Of a DNA stretch of 64,000 bases, positions 54,414-57,254 are shown in pieces. Every line of letters begins with the position of its first letter. Position 1 is the first letter of the stretch. Under the pieces are notes generated by a model. The model saw only the letters and a program-made list of their open reading frames with translations, ran no database searches and was not told where the DNA came from. The stretch is taken from NCBI GenBank assembly GCA_963818785.1, contig CAWFTT010000009.1, positions 104,469 to 168,468 on the forward strand. The letters are read 5' to 3'. The DNA is from an uncultured Actinomycetota bacterium. Its GTDB lineage: Bacteria > Actinomycetota > Actinomycetes > Mycobacteriales > Mycobacteriaceae. A program made the position numbers and the translations under genes.

Positions 54414-57254
54414 ATGCGCGCCGACAACGGTGACTCGTCAGCTGAGCAGGCGATAGACGCGAAGGTCTATACGAGCGCCTCAGCGGACGTCATCGAACGC
54501 AAGTGGCGCCGGCGCTGGAAGGAAAGCGGTGTCTTCGAAGCCGCCAATCCGGTGGGAGCCCTGCAGGGCCCGACGCCCGCGCGACGTTCGTACATCTTGG
54601 ACATGTTTCCCTACCCGTCCGGAACCGGGCTGCATGTAGGACATCCGCTCGGCTTCATCGCCACCGATGTGCTGGCTCGGTATCTGCGTATGCGGGGCGA
54701 CAACGTCCTCTACACCATGGGTTACGACGCGTTCGGTTTGCCCGCCGAGCAATATGCCGTGCAAACCGGTACCCACCCTGCGGTGACGACCGCGACGAAC
54801 GTGGCGAGGTACCAGGCTCAGCTGGAACAGCTGGGCATGTCCTACGACAACCGCCGTGCCCTGAACACCACCGACCCGACGTACTACCGCTGGACGCAGT
54901 GGATCTTCACCCGGCTGTATGACGCCTGGTATGACCCGCAGCTCGGCTGCGCGCGTCCCATCGCGACGTTGATCGACCAGCTGACGTCAGGGGCGGTCAA
55001 CGCCGGCACTGCGCCGTGGGCGGAGTTGACGCTCGCCGAACGCGAAAGTGTCTTGAACGGTTACCGTCTGGCTTACGTCGACGAAGCTCCGGTCAACTGG
55101 TGTCCGGGATTGGGTACGGTTCTTGCAGACGAGGAAGTGACGGCCGACCGGCGCTCGGAACGCGGCAACTACCCGGTGTTCTTGACCAATCTGCGGCAGT
55201 GGAAACTCCGGATCACCGCGTATGCGGATCGTTTGCTCAGCGATTTGGAGCCACTCGACTGGCCGGACTCGATCAAACAGCAGCAACGCAACTGGATCGG
55301 CAAGTCCTATGGTGTGACCATCCGGTTCGCACTGGTCGACACCGACGAAACGCTGGAGGTCTTCACCACCAGAGCTGACACGATCTTCGGTGTCAGCTAT
55401 TTGGCGGTCTCTGCCGACGCCGACATCGCCGACCGGTTGTTGCGCGCGGAGTGGCCGGATTCGACACCCGAGTCGTGGAAAGCTGCTCAGCCGTCGCCGG
55501 TGTTAGCCGCAGAAGCGCTGCGCGTCAACAGTTCTCGGGATCCGGAAGTGACTACCAGCGGCGTGTTCACCGGTTCCTTCGCAACACATCCGGTGACAGG
55601 TGCTGCGCTGCCCATCTTTCTGGCGGATTACGTGCTGGCCGAGTACGGCGCGGGCGCGGTGATGGGGGTGCCTGCCCACGACACCCGCGATTATGAGTTC
55701 GCCATGACGCACGCGTTGCCGATCACGACTGTCATCGTGCCCGATGGCGAACAGTCGAACGATTCAGCGTCAGCGGCGTATACCGGCAAAACCGGACGGG
55801 TGGTGAATTCCGCCTTTGGCGACCTCGACATCGACAATATGTCGCCGCCGGAAGCGGCTGCGGCGGTGGCGAATTGGGTGGAACATAAGGGCCTCGGCCG
55901 GATCGCGACCATGTTCAGATTGCGGGACTGGCTTTTCAGCCGACAACGTTACTGGGGCGAACCGATCCCCATCGTCTACGACGCTGAGGACGTACCACAC
56001 CGCATCCCCGACTCGATGCTGCCGGTGGAATTGCCGGAACTCGACAATTATTCACCACGAACCTTCGACCCCGACGACGCCGCCACCACTCCCGAAACGC
56101 CGTTGTCGCGGGACCCCTCCTGGGTGAACGTCGAATTGGACCTCGGAGACGGTTTACGAAAATACCGGCGCGACACCAACACCATGCCGAACTGGGCAGG
56201 TTCGTCGTGGTACGAGCTGCGCTACATCGACCCCACCGATGACGCCGTGGTCGTTCGGCCGGAGAACGAGGCGTACTGGATGGGCCCGACGGATCAAAAA
56301 CCGCTGGGCGGAACAGATCTGTACGTCGGGGGGACCGAGCAGGCGGTGTTGCACCTGCTCTATGCGCGGTTCTGGCACAAAGTGCTACACGATCTGGGCG
56401 AATTGAGTTCCAGCGAGCCGTTTCACCGCCTCTTCAACCAGGGCATGATCCAGGCTTACGTCTACCGGGACAGCCGCGGTCTGGTCGTTCCTGCCGAGGA
56501 GGTGATCGAAACAGCCGACGGGACCTTCCTCTACCAAGGCGCACCGGTCACCCAACAGCTCGGGAAGATGGGTAAATCGCTGAAAAACTCTGTCGCGCCG
56601 GACGAGATCGTCGCCGAGTACGGTGCCGACACGTTCCGGGTCTACGCAATGTCGACCGGGCCGCTCAGTGCGTCCCGTCCCTGGATTGCCCGGGCGGTGG
56701 TCGGCGCGGAGCGCTTCTTGCAGCGGGTGTGGCGCTGTGTTGTCGACCAAGAGACCGGCAAGGTGGTGGTGACGGAGGACGAGCCACCGAAGGCCGTCAT
56801 TCAGGCGCTGCATGAAACGTTGCTCGCATACCACAGCGACTTTCCCGAGTTGCGGTTCAACTCGGTGATCGCGCGGCTCATCGAGTACACCAACCTGTTG
56901 ACCAAGGCCGAGATCAACGCCCGTGCCGCGGTGGAGCCGCTGGTGCTCATGCTGGCACCGTTTGCCCCGCATCTGGCCGAGGAATTGTGGGAACGCCTCG
57001 GGCATCCGGGCGGACTGACCCGGGTCGAGGTGCCGCAGGCGAATGCCGAACTGGCGAACCGGCCTTCAGTCACGGCGATCGTCCAGATCAACGGGAAGGT
57101 GCGGGCCCGCATCGAGGTCCCGGAATCGATTGACGCCGATGATCTGGAGCGACAGGCCGCTAAAGATCCGGTGGTCGCCTCGCTGATTGCCGGGGGCAAC
57201 CTGCGGAAGACCATCGTCAAGCCGCCCAAAATCGTCAACTTCGTCGTGTCATGA
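54414..57254 (+). CDS. leuS: Leucyl-tRNA synthetase, divergent and probably a second copy
   Basis: DMFPYPSG, HVGH, GYDAFGLPAE, FTTRADT, VPAHD.RD, RDWLFSRQRYWG, KMGKS, C-terminal VQINGKVR; GGAGAGG SD. Confidence 0.93.
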   Translation: MRADNGDSSAEQAIDAKVYTSASADVIERKWRRRWKESGVFEAANPVGALQGPTPARRSYILDMFPYPSGTGLHVGHPLGFIATDVLARYLRMRGDNVLYTMGYDAFGLPAEQYAVQTGTHPAVTTATNVARYQAQLEQLGMSYDNRRALNTTDPTYYRWTQWIFTRLYDAWYDPQLGCARPIATLIDQLTSGAVNAGTAPWAELTLAERESVLNGYRLAYVDEAPVNWCPGLGTVLADEEVTADRRSERGNYPVFLTNLRQWKLRITAYADRLLSDLEPLDWPDSIKQQQRNWIGKSYGVTIRFALVDTDETLEVFTTRADTIFGVSYLAVSADADIADRLLRAEWPDSTPESWKAAQPSPVLAAEALRVNSSRDPEVTTSGVFTGSFATHPVTGAALPIFLADYVLAEYGAGAVMGVPAHDTRDYEFAMTHALPITTVIVPDGEQSNDSASAAYTGKTGRVVNSAFGDLDIDNMSPPEAAAAVANWVEHKGLGRIATMFRLRDWLFSRQRYWGEPIPIVYDAEDVPHRIPDSMLPVELPELDNYSPRTFDPDDAATTPETPLSRDPSWVNVELDLGDGLRKYRRDTNTMPNWAGSSWYELRYIDPTDDAVVVRPENEAYWMGPTDQKPLGGTDLYVGGTEQAVLHLLYARFWHKVLHDLGELSSSEPFHRLFNQGMIQAYVYRDSRGLVVPAEEVIETADGTFLYQGAPVTQQLGKMGKSLKNSVAPDEIVAEYGADTFRVYAMSTGPLSASRPWIARAVVGAERFLQRVWRCVVDQETGKVVVTEDEPPKAVIQALHETLLAYHSDFPELRFNSVIARLIEYTNLLTKAEINARAAVEPLVLMLAPFAPHLAEELWERLGHPGGLTRVEVPQANAELANRPSVTAIVQINGKVRARIEVPESIDADDLERQAAKDPVVASLIAGGNLRKTIVKPPKIVNFVVS

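Follow-up and report, generated by a model that had tools for sequence, protein, structure and literature searches.

A foreign, orphan leucyl-tRNA synthetase in uncultured soil Mycobacterium as a candidate immunity-derived accessory enzyme

Introduction

Why does a soil Mycobacterium carry, between its fadE2 and pntAa genes, a leucyl-tRNA synthetase (LeuRS) that does not resemble those of its genus? The question is raised by a 64,000-nucleotide stretch of contig CAWFTT010000009.1 (the window), in which 54414..57254 of the forward strand encodes a bacterial-type LeuRS of 946 amino acid (AA) residues, here called leuS*. An earlier note, made from the letters of the window, had taken it for a divergent and probably second LeuRS, being either an inhibitor-resistant paralogue or an enzyme with shifted amino-acid specificity. 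Based on the open reading frame, profile scores, structure alignment, phylogeny and comparison of loci, we propose that leuS* may be an orphan, immunity-derived accessory LeuRS insensitive to mimics of leucyl-adenylate (Leu-AMP), a proposal that we regard as evenly poised. The host is an uncultured soil Mycobacterium, given that the gene order of the window fits what we take to be the Rv0110-Rv0155 region of M. tuberculosis and that some carriers of leuS* are metagenome-assembled genomes (MAGs) labelled Mycobacterium sp.; the MAGs with leuS* are GCA_963808345.1 (on the 1.24-Mb contig CAWEFM010000005.1), GCA_963808375.1 and GCA_049802695.1 (which encodes WP_425173082.1).

The leuS* gene encodes an intact LeuRS

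The leuS* gene starts with an ATG codon, 4 nt downstream of a Shine-Dalgarno-like GGAGAGG (54403..54409, +). Its product scored 852.8 bits against the NCBIfam model TIGR00396 (leuS_bact), above the curated equivalog cut-off of 548.4, and residues 26-945 align end to end to the LeuRS structures of T. thermophilus and E. coli, covering residues 8-145 and 148-876 of the former. Both the LeuRS editing domain and the anticodon-binding domain were recognised in Pfam, and the HIGH motif (HVGH, residues 74-77; 54633..54644, +) and the KMSKS motif (KMGKS, residues 718-722; 56565..56579, +) are intact in their actinobacterial forms. The actinobacterial 48-residue insertion and the short leucine-specific region are present as in Mycobacterium LeuRS. 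Contacts to leucine and the adenylate through M64, F65, Y67, H74/H77, D105, E642 and H647 are intact; of the E. coli (Ec) contact set L41/F, Y43, H52, D80, E532, H533 and H537, six out of seven are kept, the exception being H533, which is replaced by Gln643. The Thr-rich editing region and the two Asp residues of the editing site (Ec T247, T248, T252, D342 and D345) are all present. leuS* is a member of the LeuRS family despite the change at Ec H533, which is no argument against membership. As the earlier note had described, the enzyme is full-length, not decayed, strongly divergent and located at a non-canonical site, as evidenced by its intact domains, its low ratio of non-synonymous to synonymous substitution rates (dN/dS, 0.15-0.17) and its position between fadE2 and pntA, and all motif strings quoted there were found in their places, including GHPLGF at residue 76, KQQQ at 288, TTRADT at 318, SADA at 333 and HDTRD at 422.

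The source being a metagenome assembly, an assembly error, a chimeric contig or a decaying gene had to be considered, and the AlphaFold2 model of leuS*, built on a 27-sequence alignment, was too poor for use (mean predicted local distance difference test score 58.9; predicted template-modelling score 0.36), which is attributable to the shallow alignment. A protein identical to leuS* is encoded on ERZ25039594, an independent ENA metagenome contig of 155 kb, which differs from the window at 110 positions in 19.6 kb (0.6%); ten of these fall within leuS*, ten being synonymous and none non-synonymous. The His-to-Gln change is therefore not a sequencing error, an outcome that the earlier note had named as fatal to its reading. 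In addition, a short-read contig of run X1 covers 56160-56572 and differs only at 56219, 56250 and 56458, leaving the Gln codon unaffected. Gln at Ec533 is found again in the loci L082 and L092 and the proteins P0002 and P0003, close relatives with the same residues occur in three more long contigs or MAGs and in several short-read assemblies, and the same synteny is seen in five independent assemblies. With the full-length frame, the good Shine-Dalgarno sequence and a dN/dS of ~0.15, sequencing error and pseudogenisation are excluded, and an artefact, which we regard as exceedingly improbable, is effectively refuted by the independent assemblies. This ENA contig (locus L083) is distinct from the window, whose positions 44417-64000 it matches with 99.4% identity and nine indels.

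Foreign origin and conserved insertion site

Canonical mycobacterial LeuRS proteins are 82-90% identical to each other and ~62-67% identical to those of Streptomyces or Pseudonocardiales, whereas leuS* shares 52-54% identity with canonical mycobacterial LeuRS and 55-58% with other actinobacterial LeuRS. The phylogeny called for by the earlier note was computed by neighbour-joining on 94 LeuRS sequences with 100 bootstraps. Canonical Mycobacterium LeuRS were monophyletic in 100/100 replicates and were joined by the leuS* clade in 0/100. The window protein and P0001-P0008 form this clade in 100/100 replicates, with P0009 as its sister in 100/100, and the clade sits on a long branch among LeuRS of the Micrococcales/Actinomycetales type. 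The GC content at third codon positions (GC3) is 0.75-0.78 in leuS*; the flanking genes have 0.82-0.89 and canonical leuS genes 0.81-0.87. Given its low identity, its tree position apart from Mycobacterium and its lower GC3, leuS* is classed, on sequence grounds, as a xenologue foreign to the mycobacterial housekeeping LeuRS. No plasmid-borne relative above 54% identity was found in a plasmid search.

The locus points in the same direction. In related soil mycobacteria the canonical leuS is flanked by a gene for an Lpp-LpqN lipoprotein and by marR, and leuS* behaves as an Rv0041 orthologue neither in grouping with Mycobacterium LeuRS nor in occupying the lpqN/mtc28-marR locus. Instead, the order fadE2<-|leuS*->DUF1348->pntAa-pntAb-pntB is common to five assemblies.

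Exceptional residues in leuS*

Residues were surveyed over ~230 actinobacterial LeuRS proteins, 82 canonical sequences of wide phylogenetic spread (E. coli among them) and ~165 genomic and metagenomic LeuRS loci; the loci from genome and metagenome contigs are those listed in the search (~160-165), and the counts below hold among these matches. No close relative of leuS* was present among the listed loci. Several features singled out in the earlier note proved ordinary or recurrent, since HVGHPLG[Y/F], LANEEV and KMGKS are the usual actinobacterial forms, from which leuS* deviates only by Y>F and N>D, KQQQ departs from the actinobacterial consensus IKLQQRNW by no more than a trivial L>Q, and TTRADT in place of TTRPDT occurs in five unrelated LeuRS of the ~165 surveyed loci. 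The note's YGAG and His>Gln changes do stand out, and the exceptional positions are Ec T332A (YGAG), H533Q and G174R, the lost K300 and H265, and a rewritten 369-382 loop. Thr occupies Ec332 in 164 other surveyed loci, and Ala was found only in five loci of the leuS* clade. At Ec533, His is present in 165 other surveyed loci and Gln in none of them (0/165), and among the ~230 listed proteins Gln533 is absent outside the leuS* clade but for P0019/P0050 and P0009. The EQA motif bearing this Gln and TTRADT are confined to one of two leuS* allele classes.

Gln643 (CAG, 56340..56342, +) lies in the 'priming loop' GGTEQAVLHLLY (quoted motif at residue 639) and aligns with Ec His533 and T. thermophilus His541. 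The earlier note had placed this His in the leucine side-chain pocket. It is indeed an active-site residue; in a 2026 structure study of E. coli LeuRS, however, it is described with Leu41, His52, Asp80 and Glu532 as hydrogen-bonding the adenylate analogue Leu-AMS within the priming loop (531-536), a loop contacted by Glu169 of the ZN domain, and as approaching A76 of the tRNA (PMC13454842). At the corresponding tip of the ZN domain (55128..55151, +), LADEEV of leuS* (residue 237) carries N239D, at Ec N168, next to the Glu of Ec E169, which is conserved. Just downstream of LADEEV follows G246R (Ec G174), four residues ahead of the Arg equivalent to Ec R178.

The CP1 editing domain (PF13603, residues 292-489, 170 bits; 55287..55880, +) retains T318, T319, R320, D322, T323, M417, D423, R425 and D426 and is changed by P321A (55374-55376), H336A, K381T and the altered 369-382 loop. 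The invariant GTG of the AMP-binding loop of the editing site is broken, as Ala413 (55650..55652, +) of YGAG (motif at 411) stands for Ec T332. A link to benzoxaboroles, which the earlier note had drawn from their binding to the editing site, was rejected as a specific prediction. In M. tuberculosis LeuRS the adduct contacts and resistance sites are S311, T336, T337, L432, Y435, M441, D447, R449 and D450 (PMC5038265), and all of their leuS* equivalents (S298, T318, T319, L408, Y411, M417, D423, R425 and D426) are conserved; only the neighbouring GTG Thr is altered close to these sites. Another altered AMP loop of the editing site was observed in the metagenome contig Ga0082212_10010178 (L171), whose LeuRS has YGFG for YGTG, together with LADEEV.

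Gln533 co-occurs with agrocin-84-like clusters

Among the best 120 database matches, Gln533 was found outside the leuS* clade and its sister only in P0019 of Streptomyces griseoluteus and P0050 of Micromonospora sp. NPDC049107. These two are 86% identical though from different genera, and they share ~73% identity with LeuRS of Kitasatospora and Streptomyces and 62% with LeuRS of Micromonospora. Because their mutual identity exceeds that to Micromonospora LeuRS, they appear to have travelled together with their surroundings. Both lie beside a cluster encoding two S-adenosylmethionine (SAM) methyltransferases, an S66/MccF-like peptidase, a short-chain dehydrogenase/reductase (SDR), a PhyH dioxygenase, a kinase-like protein and two unknowns, with an additional ATP-grasp ligase in the Micromonospora locus (L085:1-12877) and an additional TauD dioxygenase and AsnA-like class II synthetase homologue in the S. 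griseoluteus locus (L086:6010-18895). The AsnA-like protein matches AgnA, the 'agrocin 84 synthetase' of pAgK84, with 41% identity (E 8e-68), and the methyltransferase, SDR, S66 peptidase and PhyH proteins match AgnC3, AgnC2, AgnC5 (MccF-like) and AgnC6, respectively. In pAgK84, agn genes surround agnB2, which encodes an agrocin-84-resistant LeuRS (PMC5059758, PMC8323819). Since homologues of AgnA and AgnC2/C3/C5/C6 accompany a LeuRS as in pAgK84, the actinobacterial cluster is agn-like and its LeuRS, which in both loci carries His545>Gln in addition to His533>Gln, is the positional analogue of AgnB2. It is likely that this cluster directs the biosynthesis of an uncharacterised LeuRS-directed natural product and includes the immunity gene.

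The third occurrence outside the mycobacterial clade is P0009, the fully supported sister of that clade, which also has Gln533 (EQA) and whose gene is directly followed by an AgnA-like gene, the product of which is 48% identical to the Streptomyces AgnA-like protein. Therefore, within the surveyed material outside the leuS* clade, Gln533 co-occurs exclusively with agn-like clusters, and among the surveyed LeuRS it is found in three lineages and none else, namely the agn-linked Streptomyces/Micromonospora pair, the agn-linked P0009 and the mycobacterial EQA allele. As P0019/P0050 derive from LeuRS of the Streptomycetaceae type and are 55-56% identical to the window protein, the sequences indicate that their Gln533 arose independently of that in leuS*. 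The P0009 locus (L084:770-4320) is on a 4.3-kb contig of 59% GC in assembly GCA_900150815.1 and is a possible contaminant.

A further agn-like set was noticed in Bacillota, on plasmid pBTZ_2 of Bacillus pseudomycoides (L175, 118508-140953), with genes for AgnA-like, SAM-methyltransferase, ATP-grasp, TauD and adenosylhomocysteinase proteins; no leuS is listed there, where the annotation is incomplete.

A gene-sized cassette with its own history

Sliding-window identity between lineages drops only within ~54,220-57,280, that is, in leuS* and its upstream spacer, so that a cassette with approximate limits 54220..57280 can be delineated by a divergence that differs from both flanks. For the flanking genes fadE2, DUF1348, pntAa and pntB, synonymous divergence (dS) is ~0.45-0.6 when the lineages of the window, L081 and L093 are compared with one another, and ~0.3 when the window is compared with L082/L092. 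The leuS* genes fall into an EQA/TTRADT class (the window, L082, L092, P0002 and P0003) and an EHA/TTRPDT class (L081, L093 and P0004-P0008), between which dS reaches 1.2-1.3 at 73-75% AA identity. Within the EQA class dS is 0.15, closer than in the flanks (~0.3). The DUF1348 gene diverges like the native flanks, unlike leuS*. This pattern is that of a gene-sized allele replacement, with a history of leuS* discordant with its flanks. Loci that experience diversifying or episodic positive selection typically show such replacement. The dN/dS of leuS* is similar to the 0.10-0.15 of canonical mycobacterial leuS, demonstrating that leuS* is under purifying selection.

Conversion of leuS* by a canonical leuS of the same cell, which would have proved that the two genes coexist, left no trace. 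A stretch at residues 811-860 that looked Mycobacterium-like lost this likeness in DNA comparison, where the identity did not exceed that to Brachybacterium or Aeromicrobium.

A proposed role in immunity and its alternatives

Taken together, the horizontally acquired leuS* may be a catalytically competent enzyme kept as an accessory LeuRS by one uncultured soil Mycobacterium lineage, being an 'orphan' descendant of the self-immunity LeuRS of a producer. It would charge tRNA-Leu while a natural Leu-AMP mimic of the agrocin-84/TM84 kind blocks the housekeeping enzyme. The lid of the synthetic site would be remodelled by His>Gln in the adenylate-bonding priming loop and by N>D and G>R at the docking tip of the ZN domain, and these changes would lower the affinity for the mimic with the chemistry on Leu-AMP kept; Gln643, N239D and G246R may act in concert to exclude the mimic. 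The EQA allele would then be a variant that a gene-sized cassette has lately carried from one lineage to another. We infer that a canonical leuS resides in the same cells, that leuS* confers resistance and that each substitution plays the part given here. A wider version of this proposal, in which the mobile gene-sized cassette stems from an actinobacterial agrocin-84-like immunity gene and His533>Gln is a convergent, previously unrecognised determinant of resistance to Leu-AMP mimics, is put forward tentatively, with more doubt than belief.

The closest parallel is AgnB2 of Rhizobium rhizogenes K84 (pAgK84; PDB 5AH5), an additional LeuRS whose sensitivity to TM84 is about 1000-fold lower (PMC5059758, PMC8323819); inhibition by TM84 is tRNA-dependent, and AgnB2 owes its resistance to changes at the periphery of the synthetic site (PMC5059758). 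Like AgnB2, leuS* is of the extra type, has diverged from the LeuRS of its host and keeps the catalytic and editing machinery, and the same role, tRNA-Leu charging despite a Leu-AMP mimic, is proposed for both. The two are not related by descent, as leuS* is ~44% identical to the Agrobacterium plasmid LeuRS and has its nearest relatives in actinobacteria. They also differ in detail, AgnB2 having His at Ec533, KQSKS, T42 and A102 and being without the leucine-specific domain, and leuS* having KMGKS with MFPYPSG and Asn129 conserved. Moreover, agnB2 lies inside the agn cluster next to agnA, whereas leuS* is an orphan, although the genes for P0009 and P0019/P0050 do adjoin AgnA-like genes. Gln533 would be another solution than that of AgnB2 to the same problem. 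With P0009, the sister of the clade, and P0019/P0050, leuS* has in common a His>Gln change at Ec533 that the survey showed nowhere else, but P0019/P0050 keep YGTG, LANE and Gly174 and are embedded in a biosynthetic cluster, unlike leuS*.

Several findings weigh on the other side. The EHA class is without Gln533, which is thus dispensable for the clade at large; AgnB2, as said, keeps His there and has other changes instead; the dN/dS of leuS* is no higher than that of canonical leuS; the effect ascribed to H533Q is a predicted one; and the agn context of P0009 comes from the one 4.3-kb contig. In the search of the 64-kb window for agn-like genes, none was found beyond one generic match to an SDR. 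Nor was a canonical leuS found linked to leuS* in the genomes that bear it, among the best 120 matches to each of two canonical soil-Mycobacterium queries. All of these matches have at least 86% identity and none is on a leuS*-bearing contig, the contigs concerned being 1,238,300, 706,903, 616,043, 231,492 and 155,292 bp long; as each search lists the best 120 representatives and hides cluster members, it is a weak test of absence. The canonical LeuRS candidates taken from cluster listings likewise belonged to other assemblies. A depth comparison of the leuS* locus with canonical leuS in eight metagenome runs gave no depth match, many related strains being present and conserved segments collapsing. 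The earlier note's inhibitor-resistant paralogue is the best-supported reading, on other evidence than the note's own, in so far as Gln533 outside the clade is found only in agn-linked LeuRS and AgnB2 is an apt analogy; the second copy that it supposes is a presumed one.

These searches bear on a xenologous replacement, in which leuS* would be the sole LeuRS, the native lpqN-marR gene having been lost after its acquisition, and the odd residues would be tolerated drift. Beyond the missing canonical gene among the matches listed, the Rv0041-equivalent region is expected on the 1.24-Mb contig of GCA_963808345.1, provided that M. tuberculosis synteny holds, the dN/dS equals that of canonical leuS and all domains are intact. 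However, besides the weakness of the negative search, the leuS* protein has diverged 2.5-fold faster than expected (74% identity versus ~90% for canonical LeuRS at equal flank dS), its GC3 is below that of its neighbours, and its changes affect positions invariant in 165-390 other LeuRS. The cassette-like allele exchange and the agn-linked sister also fit an accessory gene better, and we consider a replacement unlikely, if a serious contender. An accessory LeuRS could likewise serve something other than immunity: it might be an isoform for stress or particular conditions, differ in its specificity for the amino acid or in editing, supply another pathway with Leu-tRNA or Leu-AMP, or act in regulation. 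Consistent with this, the editing domain is altered throughout the clade (T332A, loss of Ec H265 and K300, the rewritten 369-382 loop), leuS* is closely coupled to a DUF1348/SnoaL-like gene, and archaeal LeuRS duplicates have non-canonical roles (PMC9437257). Nevertheless, the leucine- and adenylate-binding residues other than H533 are kept, as are the hydrolytic T252, D342 and D345, the DUF1348 gene evolves with the native flanks and not with leuS*, and the restriction of Gln533 to agn-linked LeuRS would be left unexplained; a non-immunity role is accordingly judged improbable. Within it, the shift of amino-acid specificity suggested in the earlier note is no more than a possibility. An isoleucyl-tRNA synthetase (IleRS)-like reading of Gln533, Gln being presumably the residue at the equivalent IleRS position, was considered and dropped.

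Resistance-conferring second synthetases of other specificities follow the same general logic as the role proposed here. Mupirocin-resistant IleRS2/MupA/MupB, TrpRS2 and SerRS2 are, similar to what is proposed for leuS*, horizontally acquired, divergent and active aminoacyl-tRNA synthetases (aaRS) beside a sensitive housekeeping copy (PMC9437257, PMC5388404); they handle other amino acids, and the inhibitor insensitivity of leuS* is predicted. LeuRS duplicates are reported to be rare, LeuRS being among the least duplicated aaRS (PMC5388404). Those known from archaea, LeuRS-I of Sulfolobaceae and LeuRS2 of Natrialba, are also duplicated with altered editing regions, but retain little or no aminoacylation and have a disrupted CP1 or C-terminal domain, whereas leuS* keeps all catalytic elements. 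In comparison with the housekeeping LeuRS of Mycobacterium (M. tuberculosis Rv0041; editing-domain structures 5AGR), leuS* belongs to the same family with the same domain order and the HVGHPLG and KMGKS forms, and differs in its locus and in T332A, H533Q, G174R, N168D and the rewritten 369-382 loop.

Neighbourhood of leuS* and other features of the window

The native left flank is a fadE2-like acyl-CoA dehydrogenase gene (52991..54259, -), separated from leuS* by a divergent intergenic region of 154 bp (54260..54413) that belongs to the swapped cassette. A scan of this region with Rfam gave no leader RNA and no T-box; no sigma-70 consensus was found there, and promoter and terminator scans were uninformative. 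Downstream, the DUF1348/SnoaL-like gene (57261..57734, +) begins 6-18 nt after the leuS* stop codon and, judged by this spacing, is probably co-transcribed with leuS*; a search for transcription evidence turned up no RNA runs. The pntAa-pntAb-pntB transhydrogenase genes (57854..60729, +) form the native right flank. Further genes of the window encode a rhomboid protein, a FadD-like protein, a YkuD transpeptidase, an EF-G paralogue, a PepA-like protease, TreS, Mak, a DUF1275 protein, an antigen-85-like esterase, a P450 and PE-PPE proteins.

The PE-PPE genes (48948-51755), beyond a phosphatase gene and fadE2, vary in number and length compared to L081, L082, L092 and L093, with products of 374+429, 467+512, 491+197 and 491 AA across the lineages, so that a variable region lies near the leuS* site. 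The EF-G paralogue (16059-18218, -; 719 AA, five EF-G domains), which presumably corresponds to mycobacterial fusA2, is another translation-factor paralogue in the window. An M-box (Mg2+) riboswitch was detected at 11842-12016 (+, 146 bits), ~310 nt upstream of a gene of the Nramp family (12330-14084, +), which suggests that this NRAMP relative is Mg2+-regulated and possibly Mg2+-transporting, in place of the usual MgtE, MgtA or CorA partner.

Implications

LeuRS is a validated antimycobacterial target, with benzoxaboroles of the epetraborole/ganfeborole type acting at the editing site and Leu-AMP mimics at the synthetic site. A horizontally acquired, drug-insensitive second aaRS is a known phenomenon; what is new here is an orphan outside any cluster, in Mycobacterium, with a candidate resistance signature. 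If leuS* were instead the sole LeuRS, it would be a rare documented case of xenologous LeuRS displacement in Mycobacterium, and the 'invariant' His533 and the Thr of GTG would be dispensable. If the proposed role is true, the movement of the leuS* cassette among soil Mycobacterium would exemplify resistance by target replacement in the genus, and a natural resistance reservoir would exist in a genus that includes pathogens treated experimentally with LeuRS inhibitors. At the residue level, H533Q and the changes at the ZN-domain tip may let a class I synthetase exclude an adenylate mimic with catalysis kept, and the link to agn-like clusters points to uncharacterised LeuRS-targeting natural products in Streptomyces and Micromonospora.

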